A stretch of DNA of 12,160 nt from a virus (Duplodnaviria > Heunggongvirae > Uroviricota > Caudoviricetes): positions 1-12,160 of the IMG/VR virus record IMGVR_UViG_2728369554_000008. One strand, 5' to 3'. The notes beneath the pieces are model-generated. The model saw nothing but the letters and a program-made list of their open reading frames with translations, was not told the DNA's origin and made no database searches. Below, one piece after another: positions 1 to 10,790 of this stretch. How positions within the stretch are numbered: position 1 is the stretch's first letter; each line of letters starts with the position of its first letter. Made by a program: the position numbers and the translations under genes.

Positions 1-339
1 TTATAATTTGTTACTGTGCCACTCAAGGGCAATATCTTTGAAGGTGTTGTTTAACTGCGTTTCCCGGGCAATCTTTTCCTCTCGCTTCACTTCCATCAGA
101 TCGATTCCCCCAGAGATACCTCTTTTAGCTTCTTCAAGTTTTGCAGGAGCATCAGCTAAGGTGACCTCAGGATACACACCTAGTGCTAACAGCTTCTCTT
201 TACCAGCTACACGATACTTGAGACGCCAATATTCTCCTCCACCAGGTTTTACCAGGAGGTACAGACCACCACCATCAGCCAACTTGTAAGCCTTCTCTTT
301 TGGCTTGGCAGTGTCTATTTGACGGGCATTGAGTTTCAC
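1..339 (-). CDS. P4-type tyrosine integrase, N-terminal arm-type DNA-binding domain only (112 aa; probably a truncated remnant)
   Basis: Minus-strand ORF starting at GTG 337-339 with GGAG about 9 nt upstream; the complement of positions 1-3 is TAA. Translation MKLNARQIDTAKPKEKAYKLADGGGLYLLVKPGGGEYWRLKYR...EWHSNKL matches the conserved N-terminus of P4-family integrases, which are normally about 400 aa, so the catalytic domain is missing from this frame. Confidence 0.7.
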   Translation of the reverse strand: MKLNARQIDTAKPKEKAYKLADGGGLYLLVKPGGGEYWRLKYRVAGKEKLLALGVYPEVTLADAPAKLEEAKRGISGGIDLMEVKREEKIARETQLNNTFKDIALEWHSNKL

Positions 340-537: not shown

Positions 538-898
538 TTATAAGAATCCGCTTCTAATTCAAAGCATTACCCCATCAACACTGCGCTCACACGTCCCACC
601 ACATCAAAACATGTAAAGCCTTGCAAGCCATTGCGAGGCCTTATGTGTCTCAGTTTTGTCCCACCTTGTATTACGACTTGCATAGCCAATGAAGATAAAC
701 GTGACGACAAACGGCGCAGCAGTCTTCTTTTCCTTCATACTTTCCCCACCCAGCATGCATACCTTTATGCCATAACTGAAGTTTATGTCTGTTATGAGCG
801 AGGAGCGGAAGTCCGCAATTGTTCTTGCAACTAGGGCAGCTAAAAGACATGGCAGGCAAATGTCTACATGTAGGATACACCTGCTATCATAAAGAATC

Positions 899-1678
899 TT
901 AGTCCTGAAGCATTTTAACTTTCTTCTCATGCTTTTTATATTCGCCATTTATCCATTCAGGTTCTTCCCGAATAGCTGATCGCATACAGTGTGTTGGGAT
1001 ATCATTCCAGAAAGCTGTAATCGCATCTGCAAACTCTATAAACTGTGTTTCTGTAACCTCAAGTTGCTCATGACGTAGACTAAATCTATAGCCTCCTGGA
1101 ATATTGATATCCTGATAATACTCAGGATGCGCGACGGAAAGCTCCCGATGGGCATGGCCATCACCGTGCTTATAAACATTGACTACTTGGCGACAGGCAT
1201 CGATTTTTTCGTAATAAGCCTTGCCGGTGATATCCATCCCAACCCATTCTAGAATTTCAATTAGCCTTGGGAAGCCGATGTCCCAGATCATCGATGTTAC
1301 GGGTTTAGAGTCGAGCCAATGACTGAATTCACGGATACACTTTTCTCGAAGTTCCTTATCGAACTGGTGAAACATTCCTGCTGTCAGAGCAAGTGAAACC
1401 GTATTTTTCATATCACTGAGGGCAATCCAATGTGAAATTCCTTCATCATAAGCCTGTTCCCAGATAGCCCCCTCGTCGTCATAATCGGGGTCAAAACGCT
1501 TACCGGCGGCCTCATAGTAATCTTTTTCTTTCTGCCGAGCTTCAGCTTCAAGATCAGAATCGCTAAACTGCGAAAATAAACGTTTTCTGGCTTCAGAAAC
1601 ATAAAAATTGTGTTTGTCGAGGAAGTAAGCCCGATCAATGGTTGCAAAATAAAAAAGTGAAAAATCTTTTTCGCTCAT
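899..1678 (-). CDS. Hypothetical acidic protein, about 259 aa, function unknown (accessory cargo)
   Basis: ORF track gives 899-1756. The start is placed at the internal ATG (1676-1678) because GAGGGAG lies 6 nt upstream; the protein then begins MSEKDFSLFYF. It is rich in D/E, has an HGDGHAHRE segment, and matches no structural-phage motif I recognise. A hand count of line 1201-1260 gives 24/60 G+C. Confidence 0.7.
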   Translation of the reverse strand: MSEKDFSLFYFATIDRAYFLDKHNFYVSEARKRLFSQFSDSDLEAEARQKEKDYYEAAGKRFDPDYDDEGAIWEQAYDEGISHWIALSDMKNTVSLALTAGMFHQFDKELREKCIREFSHWLDSKPVTSMIWDIGFPRLIEILEWVGMDITGKAYYEKIDACRQVVNVYKHGDGHAHRELSVAHPEYYQDINIPGGYRFSLRHEQLEVTETQFIEFADAITAFWNDIPTHCMRSAIREEPEWINGEYKKHEKKVKMLQD

Positions 1679-2007
1679 GGGGATCTCCCTCGTTTCGTCA
1701 GTTCTACAAGCCCTTGGAAGTAGGCTGCTAATAAAGAAAAGATTACATTTGAACAACTGTGCAAGATAGCAGTACGCCTAAAGGTAGTGCAAGTATCCCA
1801 ACTAAGGTAACGATGCGTTTTCAAATATATGACTTAACGCTCGCGATATCCGCTTCTGGCACGAGGCGGACAGAACATGTGGACATGACGTCAGCTCTAA
1901 GCGAGGAGCTGATGCTAGCGGGGTAGGTTCAGTACAATCATAGGAGAGATCCAAAGTGTGCAGACACTGACTAAATTAAAGAAAATAGCATCTACGCTAT
2001 ATGGATA

Positions 2008-2928
2008 TTAATAATGTCTATGACGAATATCATTATACGCAGCCTCGGAAAGTTCGAATACCCGATCCAATCCGGAATGGGGTAATTCCACAACCAATCC
2101 CCGCTGAATAAGTTTATCGATCTGCATTAAAGCTATTTTATCTACAATAGATCGAGATAACTTAGGCGTTGCACCCAATAATACAGCTTTATATACTTCC
2201 ATAATTCTTACAATACTAGGCTCCCGATTACTATGCCTTAATTTAATAGCGCGAGTGAAACTAGGAAGCGAAAACTGTCGTCCTGACATGTTAAGTTCAA
2301 CATGTCCATAGAACATGTTAAATAGAATCCTTCGAAGTCCTTCATCAGATGATAAATAATCTATTAATTCTTCTTGTCTCTTTTCTTGAATCCAAGTTCT
2401 AATAAAGAGCCATCCTGATAATAACGATACACATAATAGATAGTATTGCGAATCAGGGAGCTGTAGCCAAGGTCCAATGATTGGGTTATCTTTAGCCGTA
2501 TTGGGAAACGTAAAAAAGAAAGCGCTTAGCGTCGCAAATACTCCTGACCCCAATCGAGGGAGAAATGCACGGGATCGTGTATCACTCCGAACTTCTGACT
2601 TTATTAATGAAGGCGTCAGACTAACAGTCTGAGTTCCTGTCGCAGTAATCACTTTAACCAAATCCATCACTTGTGACATGGGTATCAACTGTTTGTCATT
2701 TTCATCCGTAGATTTCTCAATAGACTGATTATCAATGAATTCTTTTGCTGAATTAAGGTGTTGCCATAGATTTTTTGACTCATCATCAATAAAAATACCA
2801 CTAGTATTGTCTGGATGTATTGATGCCATTTTTCTGACTATTGCCTGGCGTAACCCATTTGGGTCATTTTCCATAACATTAGAAAACTTAAAATATGCAG
2901 CAATTTCTTTATTATTTTTCCAGTCCAT
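2008..2928 (-). CDS. Hypothetical protein with two central hydrophobic segments, about 306 aa, very AT-rich (accessory cargo); start uncertain (2928 or 3003)
   Basis: ORF 2008-3003 in the track. No Shine-Dalgarno precedes the first ATG at 3003; the ATG at 2926-2928 (MDWKNNK) follows an AT-rich promoter-like stretch. Hydrophobic segments LGSGVFATLSAFFFTF and YYLLCVSLLSGWLFI. A hand count of line 2101-2160 gives 19/60 G+C. Confidence 0.65.
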   Translation of the reverse strand: MDWKNNKEIAAYFKFSNVMENDPNGLRQAIVRKMASIHPDNTSGIFIDDESKNLWQHLNSAKEFIDNQSIEKSTDENDKQLIPMSQVMDLVKVITATGTQTVSLTPSLIKSEVRSDTRSRAFLPRLGSGVFATLSAFFFTFPNTAKDNPIIGPWLQLPDSQYYLLCVSLLSGWLFIRTWIQEKRQEELIDYLSSDEGLRRILFNMFYGHVELNMSGRQFSLPSFTRAIKLRHSNREPSIVRIMEVYKAVLLGATPKLSRSIVDKIALMQIDKLIQRGLVVELPHSGLDRVFELSEAAYNDIRHRHY

Positions 2929-3472
2929 AGTAATTCTGCCCAATGAAGTAAAATATAAAATTTTATTTTTTCGTTTAGGTTGAGGTTTAATTAACAAAAG
3001 CATTAATGCTAAATCAAACGATAGTTCGCAATGACAATATAAACGTTTTCAGTGAGTTAAGCAATACTAGGAAATTATGAGACAGATTACGTCGCCTCCA
3101 CCATAATGATTAACGAACCGTACTTTTTGCAAAGTCCGCATCTGGCACATAGCAGACCAGAGACACTGGCGTAAAGCCATGGAGGATCGGTGGGAGGAGG
3201 TAAAAATCCTCTCATGCAAAAAATACGCAAAATCGATAACAGTTGGAAATCATTCAATACTCGCACTATCGAAAGTTCACCAGCCAACCGCAGCGCGTTC
3301 TTGCATACGACGTGGCTGCGGTTTCAACTCCGTCCCCCACCAATCATGATTGGGCAGTACCAGTACAGCACTAGTAAAAACTGGAAATAAGCAGTCTCAG
3401 CAAAATACCGGCCAGACGGTGAGAAGACAAAAAAGATACGCAAAGTAGCCGCGGCCCTTAGTGACATGAAAT

Positions 3473-3567: not shown

Positions 3568-4263
3568 ATGAAAAAGGAAATACTCAAGGCTCTTTGCCCT
3601 ACATGCGGTGGGTTACGTAACTGCACTGTGCATGGGAAGCTAACCACTAGCTGGGAGGATTCCCAATATCCAGTTTATGGGTACCATTACCATCACCTAC
3701 TCCAATGCAATGGCTGTGATACTGTCTTCTATCACCACAACGAACACTTCAGTGAGCATACTACCCACGAATATCGTGATGGTGAATTTGTAGAAACGCC
3801 TATAGATATGATCACTACCTATCCTGCCGCTGAAACATTTCAAGCTCCGATATGGTTATCCAAGCTTGAATCAGTTGATCGTCAGCTCTTTCAAATATTT
3901 AATGAAATGTATTCTTCATATACTTCTGACCATTTCATCCTTTCGTCCATCGGTTTACGGACGATTTTTGATCGAACTGCTGAACTGTTACAAATTCACC
4001 CCGGTTTGCCGCTTGGTGAAAAAGTTGAAAAATTAAAACAAGATGGAGTCATAGGCGACACTGAGGCATGCGTTATATCTTCTGTAATTGATGCAGGAAA
4101 CGCCGCCGCACATCGCAGTTGGAGCCCGAATAAAAGTGAGTTCGAACAAATGCTAGAAGCTATAGAAAGTTTTGTCCAAAGAACTATCTTGGGCAAAAAA
4201 TCACTTGAACATATAACCAAACAACTCCCACCTCGGGTTACAAGACCTAAAAATAGTGCATAA
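3568..4263 (+). CDS. Zinc-ribbon plus DUF4145-like domain protein, 231 aa (candidate accessory/defence gene)
   Basis: N-terminus has CPTC (x33) CNGC, a four-cysteine zinc-ribbon pattern. The C-terminus LGEKVEKLKQDGVIGDTEACVISSVIDAGNAAAHRSWSPNKSEFEQMLEAIESFV fits the remembered DUF4145 pattern (L-x-x-K-I-x-x-L, then G-N-x-A-A-H). A hand count of line 3901-3960 gives 22/60 G+C. It is convergent with the invertase gene. Confidence 0.8.
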   Translation: MKKEILKALCPTCGGLRNCTVHGKLTTSWEDSQYPVYGYHYHHLLQCNGCDTVFYHHNEHFSEHTTHEYRDGEFVETPIDMITTYPAAETFQAPIWLSKLESVDRQLFQIFNEMYSSYTSDHFILSSIGLRTIFDRTAELLQIHPGLPLGEKVEKLKQDGVIGDTEACVISSVIDAGNAAAHRSWSPNKSEFEQMLEAIESFVQRTILGKKSLEHITKQLPPRVTRPKNSA

Positions 4264-4289: not shown

Positions 4290-4847
4290 TTATGGTTTAC
4301 TTGCTACAGGGAATTTTTTATACACCGTTGAAATACCCAGATCATAAATCAGTGCGACTTGCTGCTGATATATTCCCGATTCAATCAACCTGCCAGCCTG
4401 CTCCCATTGTTCTACTGTCAGCTTTGGCTTTCGCCCACCATTCCTCCCTTCTTGTCGTGCTGCGGCAAAGCCCGCCCTAGTACGTTCGACAATAAGCTCT
4501 CGCTCCATTTCAGCCAGGGCACCCATCACATGAAAGAAAAAGCGCCCCATTGGTGTGCTGGTATCAATAGCATCCGTCAGGCTGCGAAAATTAACGCCAC
4601 GTTCGCGCAACTCCTCCACCAGCACGACAAGATGCCGCATACTGCGCCCCAGTCGGTCCAGTTTCCAGACTACCAGAGTGTCACCTGCTGATAATGTTCT
4701 GAGCAGTTTTTTCAGTCCCGGTCGGTCGGACTTAGTGCCGCTGATCTTATCTTCAAAAATCAGCTCACATCCTGCACACTCCAGCGCATTACGCTGCAAT
4801 TCCGTATTCTGGTCATTTGTTGATACGCGGACATAGCCAATAAGCAT
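4290..4847 (-). CDS. pin: Site-specific DNA invertase, serine recombinase of the Pin/Gin/Hin/Cin family
   Basis: Translation MLIGYVRVSTNDQNT...GDTLVVWKLDRLGRSM...MGRFFFHVMGALAEMERELIVERT with a C-terminal helix-turn-helix: the catalytic Ser in YVRVST and the hallmark motifs of DNA invertases. The start is set at the ATG (4845-4847) preceded by AGGGGA; the track's extension to 4892 is not supported by family alignment. Confidence 0.95.
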   Translation of the reverse strand: MLIGYVRVSTNDQNTELQRNALECAGCELIFEDKISGTKSDRPGLKKLLRTLSAGDTLVVWKLDRLGRSMRHLVVLVEELRERGVNFRSLTDAIDTSTPMGRFFFHVMGALAEMERELIVERTRAGFAAARQEGRNGGRKPKLTVEQWEQAGRLIESGIYQQQVALIYDLGISTVYKKFPVASKP

Positions 4848-4874
4848 GAGCATTCCCCTGAGTAAAAACCGGGG

Positions 4875-5414
4875 ATGATGCCAGTTAGCCATAATCTCTG
4901 CATTTTCTTAAACGTTGGTTTGGGAGAAGGCTCTGCATTACCTGTTGGTGTCCCTGTTCCGTGGCCTTCAGCCACACCGCCAACAGGCTGGCTGAAATGC
5001 AATGGTGCCGCTTTTTCTGCTGAAGAATACCCGGAACTGACAAAGGCTTATCCGACAAATAAATTGCCTGATTTACGTGGTGAGTTTATTCGTGGCTGGG
5101 ATGACGGGCGGGGGATTGATACAGGTCGCTCTATTTTAAGTATTCAGGGGTATGCAACGGAGGATCATGCTCATGGATTACCGTCAAGATCCACGATTGT
5201 GACTGATGCAACGATTAATTTCTATTTTGATGAAAACTGGGTAAATAGTGGCACTGACATTATCAAAAGAGGAAACACAAACGATGCCGGATTACCAGCA
5301 CCGGATTATGGAACCTTTAAAACATATAAACAATCAGTGGCTGGTTTAGGTACCGCAGCCTCAGAAACGCGTCCGCGTAATATTGCATTTAACTATATCG
5401 TAAGGGCAGCCTGA
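4875..5414 (+). CDS. Alternative tail-fibre C-terminal cassette (Sv'-type), currently in the unexpressed orientation; functional coding begins at the crossover site near 4917
   Basis: Translation across the site reads NVGLGEG, matching NLGLGEA in the constant part of the tail-fibre gene at 6812-6837. Downstream motifs WLKCNGAAFSAEEYPELTKAYPTNKLPDLRGEFIRGWDDGRG are typical of Mu/P1/e14-type fibre tips. There is no plausible independent start; the ATG at 4875 lies in the invertase upstream region. Confidence 0.8.
   Translation: MMPVSHNLCIFLNVGLGEGSALPVGVPVPWPSATPPTGWLKCNGAAFSAEEYPELTKAYPTNKLPDLRGEFIRGWDDGRGIDTGRSILSIQGYATEDHAHGLPSRSTIVTDATINFYFDENWVNSGTDIIKRGNTNDAGLPAPDYGTFKTYKQSVAGLGTAASETRPRNIAFNYIVRAA
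4903..4928. repeat. Invertase crossover site 1 (hix/gix-like, 12-2-12)
   Basis: Plus strand TTTTCTTAAACG-TT-GGTTTGGGAGAA. Its reverse complement shares TTCTCCCAAACCAA with site 2, and it lies about 56 bp upstream of the invertase start. Confidence 0.8.
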
Positions 5415-6016
5415 TGCATAAAGCAATATTAAATAGTGAGCTTATTGCAACAAAGGCAGGGGATGTTACCGTTTATAACTACGATGGTGAAACACTGGAA
5501 TATATTTCCACGTCAACTGAATATCTTGCTGTGGGTGTCGGTATTCCGGCATGTTCCTGTCTTGATGCACCTGGCATACATAAGGTTGGTTATGCAATCT
5601 GTCGTTCTGTGAATTTAAATTCATGGGAATATGTGCCAGACCATCGCGGTGAAATCGTCTATAGCACCGAAACAGGAGAATCAAAAGAAATCACAGCTCC
5701 GGGTGATTACCCTGAAAATACAACCACTATCGCCCCTTTATCTCCATACGATAAATGGGATGGTGAGAAATGGGTGACCGATACTGAGGCACAGCATAGC
5801 GCCGCAGTCGAAGCGGCAGAAGCACAACGCCAGTCACTGATTGATGCTGCAATGGCTTCCATTAGTCTGATTCAGCTGAAATTACAAGCCGGACGGAAAC
5901 TGACGCAGGCAGAAACAACCCGACTTAACGCCGTGCTGGATTACATTGACGCGGTGACGGCAACAGATACCAGCACCGCGCCGGATGTCATCTGGCCTGA
6001 ACTGCCGGAGGCGTAG
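5414..6016 (+). CDS. Tail-fibre assembly protein (Tfa/U'-type), partner of the silent fibre cassette
   Basis: Its ATG overlaps the TGA of the preceding cassette (TGATG). The C-terminus LDYIDAVTATDTSTAPDVIWPELPEA parallels the C-terminus of the opposite-strand Tfa, as in paired U/U' chaperones. Confidence 0.85.
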   Translation: MHKAILNSELIATKAGDVTVYNYDGETLEYISTSTEYLAVGVGIPACSCLDAPGIHKVGYAICRSVNLNSWEYVPDHRGEIVYSTETGESKEITAPGDYPENTTTIAPLSPYDKWDGEKWVTDTEAQHSAAVEAAEAQRQSLIDAAMASISLIQLKLQAGRKLTQAETTRLNAVLDYIDAVTATDTSTAPDVIWPELPEA

Positions 6017-6431
6017 GCCATTCAATATCTGGAGCACTGGAGATATCCACCAGTTCCAGTGCGTCCAGGTAATCCAGCCACAAATTATATTGCGCCAGTT
6101 CCTCGCCTTTCAGACGACCAATAGCGGCTTTACCGGGCCATTGTTTACTGTTCATGTATTCGTTGGCCTGGTTAATTAGTAGCTGTCTTTCTGATTCAGT
6201 AATTTCAATAAGCTCTTCATGCGTGGGTGGAGGAATATCTGCCCACGCAGGCAGCCCATCATCTCCGGCAATACGGATTTTTCCTTGTGGCGGTTCAGCC
6301 ATAAACTCACTGATAATATTTTGATTTACTTCCTTAGCGTCTGATAAATCCCATCCCTCTGATTTATATTTATCAATCATATCCACAGGGAAAAAAGCAT
6401 TATGCCTTGCGCTATAAACATATTCGTTCAT
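5988..6431 (-). CDS. Tail-fibre assembly protein (Tfa/U-type), partner of the expressed fibre
   Basis: Start is set at the ATG (6429-6431, MNEYVY) preceded by AGGGTGA; the track begins at an upstream GTG (6440). C-terminus LWLDYLDALELVDISSAPDIEWPTPP. Its 3' end overlaps the convergent Tfa gene by about 29 bp. Confidence 0.85.
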   Translation of the reverse strand: MNEYVYSARHNAFFPVDMIDKYKSEGWDLSDAKEVNQNIISEFMAEPPQGKIRIAGDDGLPAWADIPPPTHEELIEITESERQLLINQANEYMNSKQWPGKAAIGRLKGEELAQYNLWLDYLDALELVDISSAPDIEWPTPPAVQAR

Positions 6432-6451
6432 ATAAATCACCCTGAATAAAA

Positions 6452-7117: not shown

Positions 7118-7702
7118 TTACTCCGGATATTTAAAAATTACGTAGGTATGCGACGGGCAGAGTTTGTTAAGCACACACTCGACAACGGTGTCGCCCCAGA
7201 TACGCAGTGCGGAATCACAGGGATCGCCACATGTCATCCAGGTGGTGTTGGTGGCGGCTGGCATGTTGACCTGCCAGTAATACCGCCATTCCGGCGCATT
7301 CACCGCGTCAGTACAGGCCGATGAGCAGGTGAACGTGCTTTTGTCGTATCGCGTGATGGTGGCGTCTGGTCTGCCCAGGGCAGCAAGCTGTGCAAGGTAA
7401 AAATCCTCATTGATGCCGCCCGCCAGGTTAACCTTCGCATCCAGTCGTTGCTGACGCTGGCGAAGGGTCTGTGTCCCTGCGGGAATACATTCATCCGGCA
7501 GGCCGCACAGACGCTCCCAGCGGTTTATCAGTTCGGTGGTGGTGCGCGGATCCAGCTCCCGCATCAGGGCATCCGCACGCTGATGAACGCGGGTTAATGA
7601 CGGTGCCGCACCGGCAATCGCCGGATCTCTGGCTGACCACGCCGGACCGGGGGGCAACAGTGCCGACAACAGACGGATGTAATCATCGTTTGTCACGTCC
7701 AT
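7118..7702 (-). CDS. Mu gp48-like tail/baseplate protein (DUF2313, e14 YmfQ-like), 194 aa
   Basis: Lies directly upstream of the tail-fibre gene with a 3-nt gap, and its size and position match Mu gp48 and e14 YmfQ. Assigned by position and remembered family features; no search was run. Confidence 0.8.
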
Positions 7703-8751
7703 GAAATCGTCCCCAGTACCGCCAGTTCATTTTTTGCAATGGAGATATTGTCTGCCGGTGCAAGCAACTGATGGCTGTATTCCCCGTTCGCACCGGAAAT
7801 CGCCTCACTGATACGCGACACCTTCAGTTCTCCCTGCGGATAACCATCACGCAGCAGGAACGAACGCAACTCGGCGGTGATGGCAGCCCGTATTTCCGGT
7901 GTGTCCGGCGTCACGCGGATATGAAAATCCACTTTATGCGCCACCGGCCTGAATACATACAAATCAGAGCCTGCCACCGGGGCCAGTGGCTCAATGTGTT
8001 GTCTTGCCGCCGTTTCCGTTGATTCTTCCGGAATGGGATTAATCAGGTCACTGCCGGCAATCATCACACCGACAGTCCCCGTTCCCATCCAGTGGCGGTA
8101 TGTCCATGCGCGGGTAATGCCGGGCACTTCTTTAGCCCAGACAACATAGTCCCCGTCAGCCCCGCCCTGAGGAGTCCAGTAATACCGCTCAATGACGCGG
8201 GCGCGCCACGTTTCCAGATCTTCAGTATCAAATCCACCTGTCAGAGTGTCTGCCACGCCGGAAGACGGCAGACCATTAACCGGCGTGACCAGGATTAATG
8301 ACGTACCGTCGTCAGCGTTACCGACCGTGCCTGCACTTGAGCAGGCGATCGGCACGCGCAGGACACCACCGGCGCTGGTTGCATCGGCAGTTGCCGTGTA
8401 CTGAACCAGGTCATCGCGCTGAATAACACTCCCGGCGGTCACCTTCAGGCCATCGCTGACGCCTTCCCAGCGCATATACCCGCTGGCAGTCGTGGCCCCC
8501 TTGCGCGGACACCGTTTCATCGCAGCATGTCGCGCCAGCCAGGACTCATCGCACAGGTCAGGCAGCATGTTCATTGCCAGATAATCGATGTACCCGTAAA
8601 CCGTATGCAGCGCCGCCGCATACACCTTTGCCCGCACGTCTTCATCCATGCGCCGGAGCGTGTCGCTGACGTCCAGCCTGGCGAATAAATCGTTACGGAG
8701 CATACTGATATTTTCTGCCAGCGTCGGGCGCTGAAATTCACTGTCCGCCAT
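7693..8751 (-). CDS. Baseplate J-like protein (Mu gp47 homologue), 352 aa
   Basis: Size and position in the operon match Mu gp47. Its 3' end overlaps the gp48-like start by 10 nt. Confidence 0.85.
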
Positions 8752-9166
8752 GCGTTATCGCACTCCACAGATCATCAAAAGAAATCATTACCGGTCCGTC
8801 ACGACGCCAGAGAGTGATACTGTTACCCAGTTCATTAATCCCGGTGCGGCGGATATCCAGATCAATACGGGACACCACGCCGTCATCAATCATCCATTGC
8901 AGGCATTCGCGGATATACCCCCTTACCGTCAGCACCAGTTGATTGGTCAGTTTGCTGCGCTGAAGCAGCCACAGTCGGGAGCCGTAACGGTCATTCTGTA
9001 CCGCAGGCCAGGTATCCCCCCACCATCCCATCGGGACTTCGGCGTTGTCATCAGGCTCCGCCCGCCGCCAGGTAAACAGGGAAATCACCACAGCGCGGGT
9101 CAGCGGATCCAGCTGTGCGCTGGCGCAGGTGCGTTTACCGTTCACCGTCAGCCACAGTTCCATCAT
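8738..9166 (-). CDS. Mu gp46-like baseplate protein (Phage GP46 family), 142 aa
   Basis: Small protein between the gp45-like and gp47-like genes, overlapping both neighbours, as in Mu. Confidence 0.8.
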   Translation of the reverse strand: MMELWLTVNGKRTCASAQLDPLTRAVVISLFTWRRAEPDDNAEVPMGWWGDTWPAVQNDRYGSRLWLLQRSKLTNQLVLTVRGYIRECLQWMIDDGVVSRIDLDIRRTGINELGNSITLWRRDGPVMISFDDLWSAITHGGQ

Positions 9167-9711: not shown

Positions 9712-10790
9712 CAGAACGGGTCCTCCTGTACTCTGGCTTTTTTCTTTTTCCGCGCGCCGGGGGCTTCGGGTTCAGGCAGATAAGCATCAGGCGGGCCGAC
9801 ACGGATTTCCGTCAGGGTGCCGTTCTGGTCCTGAGTAAACGTGACTTCCGAGACAAGCAGTTCGGTATTGTCGAAACCACAGACAGGATCGAAGACAATC
9901 ACCCGCTGGTTGGGCTGCCACAGCGTACCGTTACCCTGTCGCCAGCCCTGCACCACATAGGTGGTTTCATCCGTCCGCGCCGCCCGTTGCCGGGCTTCAA
10001 AGTCAGCACGCGCAATACAGCCTGCCCCCGTAGCCTGCCCTGTCTGCCTGATATACATCGGACGGTAACGGGCAATAAATGCGTCTTCTGTGCGGGCCCG
10101 CAGCGCGGTGGTGGTGGCCTCACCGAAATCATCGTCGTTTCCGGCACGCTGCCCCGCCACCTGGTAAACAGAAAACCGCTCCCGGATACTCTTCTCCGTA
10201 TCGCAGGAAAGGATGTTTTCCCCAAGTACCAGCGCGGTATGTGCCCGCGTTGAGCCAATACCGCCAATCACCAGCCTGCCGTGCGGGTCGTCGTAAGCCA
10301 GCGCCTGCTGCTGACCGAGTATTTTGTTGATCACCTCAATCACCGTTTCACCGTGATCAGGCTGGACATCAGGAATAACACCCGACGGCGCACCGCTGTT
10401 CACCACCTCAATGCCGAAAGGCGCAGCAAGCGCCTGCGCAATCTGAACCAGCGATCGTCCGTTAAACTGTGTCGGTTCGGCTGCACAGTCAATCAGGTCA
10501 GCGGTCAGACTACGCCCAGCAATACCGGTGCTGACCGAACGGGCATCATAACGAACGGGAGTCGCCTCCACCCAGCCGGTGATCACCAGCTCATCACCAA
10601 TCAGCACTTCCACTTTTGAACCGTTTTTAATACGCGGCTGAAGCGTGGTGATACCCTCATCTCCCGGCCACTGGCGGGTGATCTCCACACTGAAATCCCG
10701 CGTCAGCCGTTCAATACCGGCACCGATGCGCACCGATGTCCAGCCATTCCACTCCCGGCCATTTACCCGTAGCGTGACGTTATCATTCAT
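9711..10790 (-). CDS. Mu gp44(P)-like baseplate hub / phage late control D-family protein, 359 aa
   Basis: Position between the gp43-like and gp45-like genes, with a lysine-rich C-terminus (ARKKKKARVQEDPF). High G+C and translationally coupled to neighbours. Confidence 0.8.
   Translation of the reverse strand: MNDNVTLRVNGREWNGWTSVRIGAGIERLTRDFSVEITRQWPGDEGITTLQPRIKNGSKVEVLIGDELVITGWVEATPVRYDARSVSTGIAGRSLTADLIDCAAEPTQFNGRSLVQIAQALAAPFGIEVVNSGAPSGVIPDVQPDHGETVIEVINKILGQQQALAYDDPHGRLVIGGIGSTRAHTALVLGENILSCDTEKSIRERFSVYQVAGQRAGNDDDFGEATTTALRARTEDAFIARYRPMYIRQTGQATGAGCIARADFEARQRAARTDETTYVVQGWRQGNGTLWQPNQRVIVFDPVCGFDNTELLVSEVTFTQDQNGTLTEIRVGPPDAYLPEPEAPGARKKKKARVQEDPF

Follow-up and report, generated by a model that had tools for sequence, protein, structure and literature searches.

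A membrane J-domain protein encoded by a mobile one-gene cassette is a candidate anti-phage module

The DNA examined here (the window) is a stretch of 12,160 nucleotides from the IMG/VR virus record IMGVR_UViG_2728369554_000008, a member of the Caudoviricetes. Our analysis concerns a minus-strand gene at positions 2008 to 2928 (stop codon at 2008-2010) that encodes a 306-amino acid protein with an N-terminal J domain, a DnaJ-type co-chaperone module that triggers ATP hydrolysis in Hsp70/DnaK. The gene resides in a cargo stretch flanked by the N-terminus of a P4-type integrase (positions 1-339) and by a Pin-type invertase that is accompanied by tail and baseplate genes of the e14/Mu-like type. 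In e14, mcrA occupies this position. The open reading frame (ORF) runs from 3003 down to 2008 on the minus strand, and encodes 331 amino acids from its first ATG. Its G+C content is 37.1%, versus 49.6% for the whole window, and sliding-window values of 35-39% make it the lowest-G+C stretch present. The ORF and the G+C profile thus agree with an earlier reading made from the sequence alone (the original prediction), which had placed a protein of 306 to 331 amino acids here and proposed an abortive-infection-type effector.

The AT-rich ORF is a real gene under purifying selection, because full-length homologues exist, the family comprises 395 sequence clusters, and the ratio of nonsynonymous to synonymous substitution rates (dN/dS) is 0.22-0.37 among four orthologues (E. 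coli-type, Erwinia, Klebsiella and Proteus). The start codon had been described as ambiguous, since neither candidate ATG has a strong Shine-Dalgarno sequence. Inspection of the sequence bears out the weak Shine-Dalgarno, but the ambiguity itself is now settled. Every homologue has M-x-W as its N-terminus, and in the Klebsiella and Proteus orthologues stop codons interrupt the equivalent of the 25 in-frame codons upstream (2929-3003, minus strand). Therefore, the true start is the ATG at 2928, which is also the start in the PGAP annotation WP_097452624.1, and the upstream extension is probably untranslated. The resulting protein has a computed mass of 35.1 kDa and a pI of 8.5. A weak candidate sigma-70 promoter (TTGCTT, a 17-nucleotide spacer and TATATT; 3036-3064, minus strand) was read by eye and is offered only as a suggestion; a stricter consensus scan of the window found no minus-strand promoter and no terminator just 3' of the gene. 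The window contains no Rfam families and no tRNAs.

The first hint of a J domain was an invariant M-A-x-x-H-P-D near the N-terminus in the alignment of homologues. The tripeptide HPD is present within the first 80 residues of 147 of the 157 relatives that were fetched, typically as L-H-P-D-K-N/T-G-G. In a family alignment of 126 sequences, His is conserved in 126, Pro in 125 and Asp in 124. The sole invariant column of this alignment is His38 (numbered as in the window protein), and Pro39, Asp40, Gly44, Phe46, Ala61 and Glu182 are each conserved in more than 90% of members. The Pfam DnaJ model (PF00226) is matched individually by 43 of the 126 members at E ≤ 0.01, with a best E-value of 6.7e-7, and besides DnaJ no Pfam family recurs among them. 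When the family profile was compared with all PDB sequences, the 14 chains at E ≤ 0.01 were all J domains, led by E. coli DnaJ (1BQZ, E = 6.1e-6), and about 50 of the 54 matches at E ≤ 10 were J domains as well. A small profile of nine sequences gave two matches at E = 1.6-2.1, both of which were J domains aligned in register.

In the window protein the J domain occupies approximately residues 5-70 (2719-2916, minus strand) and consists of helix I, a basic helix II, the HPD loop (His38-Pro39-Asp40; 2809-2817) and helix III. This assignment draws on the Pfam matches, the PDB profile matches and an AlphaFold 2 (AF2) model that has helices at residues 6-12, 23-36 and 49-76, with the HPD loop before the last of these and a predicted local distance difference test score (pLDDT) of 88-97 over residues 1-70. 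Positions that are basic in DnaJ tend to be basic in the family, with K/R at the equivalents of R22, K26 and R27 in 67%, 69% and 48% of members, respectively. The helix III aromatic (the F47 equivalent) is Y, F or W in 99%, and K/R directly follows HPD in 78%. The window protein keeps R27, R32 and K33, and has Val at the K26-equivalent position. In DnaJ itself, the mutation D35N is suppressed by DnaK R167H.

Thus, the protein belongs to the J-domain superfamily, class C, with an intact HPD. The original prediction had recognized no specific family and overlooked this domain. The window protein is annotated "hypothetical" because its sequence alone is too divergent for a Pfam match. The J domain shifts the picture from a generic membrane effector to a membrane protein coupled to DnaK/Hsp70.

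Beyond the J domain, the architecture is very probably that of a linker, two hydrophobic helices and a basic winged helix. The AF2 model built on the 126-sequence alignment has a mean pLDDT of 87.6 and a predicted template-modelling score of 0.62; an earlier model from nine sequences reached a pLDDT of 66.5, and a Foldseek search of the PDB with that earlier model was uninformative. In the later model, a low-confidence linker at residues 77-105 is followed by long helices (106-140 and 158-193) that hold the hydrophobic segments, and then by a C-terminal alpha/beta unit. The linker as a whole spans residues 71-120 (2569-2718, minus strand) and is partly low-confidence or disordered (pLDDT 56-79 for residues 71-110). 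It carries an L-I-P motif at residues 81-83, in which L81 is conserved in 75% and P83 in 66% of members.

Two moderately hydrophobic segments had been predicted near the middle of the protein, and both are found there and are conserved in every homologue. Segment 1, LGSGVFATLSAFFFTF (residues 126-141; 2506-2553, minus strand), is rich in Gly, Ala, Ser and Thr and is marginal by hydropathy; its S128 is conserved in 83% of members. Segment 2, YYLLCVSLLSGWLFI (residues 162-176; 2401-2445, minus strand), is the stronger membrane helix throughout the family. Hydrophobicity in the window protein itself is moderate, with a 19-residue Kyte-Doolittle maximum of 1.36 and crude Hessa-type sums of +2.8 and +5.3 kcal/mol. 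For segment 2, the family median of the Hessa-type sum is -0.96, and the best 17-residue Kyte-Doolittle window is at least 1.6 in 94% of members. Judged by hydropathy across the family, segment 2 is predicted to be a good transmembrane helix and segment 1 a marginal one.

The two segments probably form a hairpin with both protein termini inside, so that the J domain and the winged helix would be cytoplasmic together with DnaK. This topology is favored because of the charge bias, an insert in the loop and the strongly hydrophobic segment 1 of longer relatives. K plus R residues number 4.5 ahead of segment 1 and 3.0 past segment 2, compared with 1.7 in the loop of 20 residues that separates them. 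The longer relatives (464-524 amino acids) have a hydrophilic insert of roughly 190 amino acids exactly in the inter-helix loop. They form a sub-family (P0117, P0122, P0125 and P0137, in loci L024-L026) whose loop domain is presumably periplasmic. After HPD, the best conserved residues lie in or just after the hairpin, namely S128, F175, W179 (83%) and E182, and they therefore suggest that the hairpin is functional and not a mere anchor. Glu182 (2383-2385, minus strand), a near-invariant juxtamembrane residue in the motif T-W-x-x-E-x-R, is Glu in 97% of the 126 sequences. The C-terminal winged-helix-like domain (approximately residues 215-303; 2020-2286, minus strand) is basic, with a pI of 10.2 and a net charge of +6, and the family-median charge of its recognition helix is neutral.

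Eight close clusters share 42-95% identity with full-length coverage. An exhaustive HMMER scan of 1.84 billion representatives yielded 395 clusters at E ≤ 1e-3, with 219 still present at E ≤ 1e-10; the majority are full-length proteins of 270-330 amino acids. Other searches were narrower in their yield: a word-indexed protein search with the 126-sequence alignment returned 11 proteins, and a search for related loci with a 7-sequence alignment returned a single locus. Searches of Pfam, PADLOC, NCBIfam and PHROGs with the window protein alone gave no match, and no model in any of these collections covers the family. The family is also absent from 50,697 phage genomes, PHROGs and BFVD, and a plasmid search gave one distant match only. 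A phage origin is thus unsupported, given zero matches in the phage genomes or in BFVD. As the original prediction implied, no homology to a housekeeping protein or to a phage structural protein was found. A literature search on J domains in anti-phage defence returned only work on bNACHT25 and DnaJ and unrelated papers; members of the family may figure in the catalogue of bacterial and phage J proteins by Barriot et al. (2020). The J domain is well known, its combination with these other parts is undescribed, and it probably occurs here in a new biological setting.

The gene has moved between genera. The Erwinia typographi protein is 99% identical to the window protein, and a blastn comparison with the Erwinia locus (L011) indicates that only window positions 1849-3157 (minus strand) are common to both. 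Because this single-gene cassette of 1,309 bp, 97.7% identical, is all that is shared, a single gene has moved between genera recently. Similarity to the Klebsiella and Proteus loci begins at the same upstream edge as the Erwinia cassette, and the corresponding proteins are 85% and 81% identical. Within E. coli the intact gene is found in one of 5,426 complete genomes. Ten complete E. coli genomes have the locus, and in nine of these IS1 takes the place of the gene. Its 768 bp stand in place of window positions 2040-3011, exactly between 2039 and 3012 (E. coli AH04, locus L002, 6141-6908), and what remains is the last ~10 codons of the J-domain gene and the flanks. This replacement is compatible with a fitness cost of the gene, or with a clonal event. 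Taken together, these data strongly support the view that the gene is a rare, horizontally mobile one-gene cassette in defence islands and in the cargo regions of prophages and conjugative elements.

The cassette ends exactly at two copies of a 22-nucleotide imperfect palindrome with the pattern TCYGCY-N-YGWGCSARAAGCGGA. The upstream copy, TCTGCTATGTGCCAGATGCGGA (3135-3156, minus strand), coincides with the end of inter-genus homology. The downstream copy, TCCGCCTCGTGCCAGAAGCGGA (1849-1870, minus strand), lies 138 nucleotides past the stop codon and has a predicted RNA folding energy of -13.4 kcal/mol. The consensus hairpin has a 9-bp stem and a 6-nucleotide loop (-15.3 kcal/mol, z = -4.8), and the motif TCYGCYNYGWGCSARAAGCGGA brackets single cargo or defence cassettes. 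In the Erwinia locus, copies of the relaxed full pattern occur at 9734, 9773, 11057, 13372 and 20594, and a copy of the core only at 3878; the motif is present at every junction between defence modules. In Proteus, the motif separates a resolvase gene, the J-domain gene, YCII and Gabija. Copies are at positions 7766 and 9503 of locus L007 and position 7611 of locus L003, and 34 kb of control sequence from K-12 contain none.

Exact matches to the hairpin are present in at least 120 contig stretches of IMG/VR, in 108 different flank contexts. The copies are nearly all intergenic, and pairs often enclose cargo genes. The estimated chance frequency of the pattern is ~1.5e-11 per position, which would give a handful of occurrences in ~100 Gb, a size that is guessed for IMG/VR. 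No Rfam family corresponds to the hairpin, and its sequence was not found in the literature. A tie of the hairpin to pin or to tail-fibre genes was considered and rejected. The element could be terminator-like, a recombination site or other boundary element for cassette exchange, or a protein-binding site. On an IMG/VR prophage contig (L030), two hairpin copies enclose a gene for a 251-amino acid protein (8009-8764, minus strand) right after a tail-fibre assembly gene. A membrane helix at the N-terminus of this protein is followed by a middle part that resembles a coiled coil, and the C-terminal region reads as a winged helix. Apart from lacking a J domain, it may be a further cargo protein of the same general design, with membrane and winged-helix parts.

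A third hairpin copy in the window (788-809, plus strand) closes a second one-gene cassette. Its gene (899-1756, minus strand) is an ORF of 285 amino acids, annotated by PGAP as 259, that matches no Pfam or PADLOC model and matches phrog_19541, of unknown function, at E = 2.5e-121. Since this gene is flanked by two hairpin copies, it looks like an independent cargo cassette. A two-gene system of this neighbor and the J-domain gene is rejected: the Klebsiella, Proteus and Erwinia loci lack the neighbor, which stays in place when IS1 removes the J-domain gene. No conserved neighbor was found across the loci examined, in agreement with the stand-alone arrangement that had been proposed at the outset. 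Likewise, no Hsp70 gene lies near the J-domain gene in any of these loci that could be a dedicated partner.

Between the cassette and the invertase, a plus-strand gene (3568-4263) encodes a protein of 231 amino acids whose N-terminal part has four Cys arranged in CxxC-type pairs and whose C-terminal part is a DUF4145 domain (PF13643, E = 8.8e-10); it also matches phrog_1305, which is annotated as a DNA-binding protein. In the otherwise matching locus of E. coli CFE299, an acyltransferase gene stands in its place. The Pin/Gin-type serine invertase (4290-4892, minus strand) adjoins opposed ORFs for a tail-fibre C-terminus and its assembly (4875-6016, plus strand; 5988-6440, minus strand), and the region 4290-6440 resembles a host-range segment, subject to inversion, in a tail module of the e14/Mu-like type. 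Only the arm-binding N-terminus of the P4-type integrase (1-339, minus strand) is present, at the edge of the window. In E. coli CFE299 (L001, 7104-7439) the integrase gene is a pseudogene, truncated and bordering the vat autotransporter islet, and E. coli AH04 has a full-length integrase and an IS66 insertion at about window position 915-926. The island appears to be decaying.

Relatives of the J-domain gene are frequently found among genes for defence. The Klebsiella gene neighbors a type I restriction-modification system with PrrC, and the Proteus gene neighbors Gabija. In Erwinia, a type II CBASS operon lies on one side of the gene and Mrr-like/HNH nucleases on the other, with Shango and a Mokosh-like helicase farther out. 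A CTnDOT-like conjugative element carries a relative near AbiH. Among metagenomic relatives, the neighbors are PDC-S06 (P0016), HEPN_AbiU2 (P0015), an MNT-HEPN pair (P0019), Olokun (P0010), a SNIPE-T5orf172 nuclease (P0018) or, for P0013, a PLD-helicase, the SIR2 protein PDC-S25 and HEPN-RES. In total, known or candidate defence or toxin genes are adjacent in 10 of 13 independent informative contexts. The suggestion that the protein resembles single-gene abortive-infection systems thus holds insofar as it is a solitary membrane protein in such surroundings; a match to a PADLOC model was not obtained.

Because class-C J proteins recruit Hsp70 to a particular place or client (PMC8215388), we infer that the one described here delivers DnaK to the inner membrane, on its cytoplasmic side. 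Our preferred interpretation is that it is a stand-alone, mobile, inner-membrane class-C J protein that brings host DnaK to the membrane as an anti-phage module, and we assign this a probability of roughly 0.5. A role in defence, considered by itself, is suggested by the gene contexts and is somewhat favored.

A specific mechanism in which a chaperone gates the response is more tentative, and we hold it to be less likely than not. In this scheme, the J domain would recruit and activate host DnaK, its assumed partner, at the membrane. The winged helix would be the sensor, recognizing a phage component (DNA or protein) there, the hairpin would be the part that acts on the membrane, and DnaK would be the switch. 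In the version that we prefer, the J domain would load DnaK in cis on the linker or the hairpin, and the protein would thereby be held inert. Infection would then divert or overload DnaK, or supply the ligand of the winged helix, and the released protein would perturb the membrane and cause abortive infection. Precedents for chaperone dependence are bNACHT25, which requires the DnaJ-DnaK cycle (PMC12169576), and CmdTAC, which uses a SecB-like chaperone (10.1101/2022.05.12.491691).

Several observations weigh against a chaperone-coupled defence protein. The assignment of the J domain depends on the family profile: the window protein alone does not match Pfam DnaJ even at E ≤ 10, and structural searches place no J domain among the top matches. 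The marginal hydrophobicity of segment 1 makes the topology uncertain. DnaK as the partner Hsp70 is an assumption. The link to defence, strong as it is, is one of guilt by association and carries no formal background statistic. In the window the J-domain gene has no known defence gene beside it, and PADLOC-DB v2.0.0 (2023 release) has no matching model at E ≤ 0.1. The genes for the long variants in loci L024-L026 adjoin a K+-channel-like gene and no defence genes. The IS1 replacements, in turn, may be clonal and reflect one or few events.

The same defence-island evidence could be explained by a protein that excludes phages without killing the cell. Here the winged helix would bind a phage component arriving at the inner membrane, be it ejected DNA, a protein of the pilot or tape-measure type, or a complex for replication or assembly, and the J domain would direct DnaK to clamp or disassemble it. 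Entry or replication would thereby be blocked while the cell survives, as with a superinfection-exclusion protein. A model for such an activity is the dismantling of the lambda O-P-DnaB complex by DnaJ and DnaK. The C-terminal domain, a basic winged helix, would suit this adaptor, as would the location of the window gene at a prophage end, the relative that adjoins SNIPE (PF13250) fused to a T5orf172 nuclease domain, and the general targeting of Hsp70 to a client or site by class-C J proteins (PMC8215388). However, an adaptor does not account for the conservation of the hairpin and juxtamembrane Glu, which is second only to that of HPD, and the neutral median charge of the recognition helix does not favor binding of this kind; we consider the explanation unlikely. 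Still less probable is that the protein serves its mobile element as a decoy or modulator of DnaK. In that case the membrane-tethered J domain would titrate or redirect DnaK, and could so deprive competitors that depend on it (lambda-like replication, P1 RepA) or adjust the heat shock response. A simple decoy would need neither a conserved membrane hairpin nor a winged helix, and J proteins are catalytic and normally of low abundance (PMC8215388). The family is, moreover, absent from the phage genomes, PHROGs and viral structure predictions noted above. In its favor, lambda and P1 do rely on DnaK/DnaJ (PMC12169576, PMC8215388), and the J protein Rki of phage RB43, which stabilizes sigma-32, shows that J proteins directed at the DnaK of the host do occur in mobile elements (PMC3486835). 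The gene is also carried by islands next to prophages, by a conjugative element and by further integrated elements.

The protein might instead be an envelope-signalling co-chaperone comparable to DjlA, which together with DnaK modulates the Rcs phosphorelay and colanic-acid capsule. By altering the cell surface it would confer phage resistance only indirectly, and its true role might be stress adaptation. Some family contexts lack defence genes, as would be expected in this case, and DjlA has the commonest bacterial class-C architecture and, as a membrane J protein, itself acts together with DnaK (PMC10410713, PMC8215388). Yet the domain order is reversed relative to DjlA, there is no sequence kinship beyond the J domain and no match to a DjlA, DjlB or DjlC model or profile, and a sporadic, island-borne distribution with recent inter-genus transfer is unlike that of a housekeeping signalling factor. 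We therefore regard this explanation as improbable, although not quite as improbable as a decoy. The weakest rival is a holin- or toxin-like protein for addiction or lysis, in which helix 1 would act as a pinholin-like signal-arrest-release segment and the hairpin would make lesions. The marginally hydrophobic segment 1, with its abundant Gly, Ala, Ser and Thr, and the displacement of the gene by IS1 in most E. coli carriers are in keeping with this idea. Two family members match Phage_holin_3_6 weakly (E = 0.018), which is not significant, and with 306 amino acids and two soluble domains the protein far exceeds a holin in size. Since no endolysin or lysis cassette is adjacent in any context examined and the family is absent from phage genomes, we judge a holin to be very improbable.

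If the preferred interpretation, a DnaK-recruiting membrane protein for phage defence, is correct in its full form, this would be the first anti-phage protein with its own J domain, a one-gene system coupled directly to the host Hsp70 cycle and using DnaK as guard or executioner, and its gene would be one of many cargo cassettes that pass between enterobacterial islands and prophages at an undescribed hairpin of 26-28 nucleotides. We hold this larger claim to be possible, with the odds clearly against it. In the guard version, immunity would fire once infection diverts the chaperone. In the executioner version, DnaK would be aimed at a phage component at the membrane. J-domain proteins set where and on what Hsp70 acts, and some defence systems sense infection via host chaperones; with a J domain inside a defence-island protein, the connection would be direct. 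Of the six J-domain proteins in E. coli K-12, none is tied to immunity (PMC8215388). About 400 sequence clusters would join the unannotated part of defence islands, and the boundary hairpin would provide a handle on the swapping of single defence genes between genera.

Among known systems, DjlA is similar in that it combines an inner-membrane anchor with a cytoplasmic J domain, has DnaK as its expected partner, and lacks DnaJ-type client-binding domains. However, the anchor of DjlA is N-terminal and its J domain C-terminal, whereas here an N-terminal J domain is followed by a central hairpin and then a winged helix. DjlA is also a core gene, in contrast to the rare island cargo described here. 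NCBIfam, which includes a DjlA model, gave no family at E ≤ 0.01, and no sequence match extends beyond the J domain. Identity with DjlA is thus rejected because of the reversed architecture and the lack of a model match. DjlB and DjlC share an N-terminal J domain, a downstream membrane anchor and a specialized class-C character. Unlike the present family, they have HPE in K-12, are 475-483 amino acids long with a single C-terminal anchor, and adjoin the gene for their partner Hsp70, hscC. An hhalign comparison gave a probability of 0.3-0.9% over a 29-residue stretch that covers only helix II through HPD/HPE, and BLASTP of the long variant against DjlB and DjlC gave no match. With no Hsp70 gene nearby in addition, kinship with DjlB and DjlC is rejected.

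Rki of the T4-like phage RB43, the first phage-encoded J-domain protein (PMC3486835), is likewise a J-domain protein of a mobile element that acts on host DnaK. It comes from a virulent T4-related phage, whereas the present family is absent from phages and adds membrane and winged-helix modules; a Rki-like identity is rejected. The logic proposed here, activation through a chaperone cycle of the host type, is that of bNACHT25 with DnaJ and of CmdTAC, in which surplus chaperone abolishes defence. There the chaperone component is a protein of its own, either DnaJ of the host or a dedicated SecB-like protein. Neither system is homologous to this family, in which the co-chaperone domain is built in. 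The eukaryotic proteins Tim14/Pam18 and Sec63 are parts of translocases and provide an analogy only (the best PDB profile match to Tim14 has E = 0.51), but they illustrate how a membrane-held J domain focuses Hsp70 on clients at the membrane.

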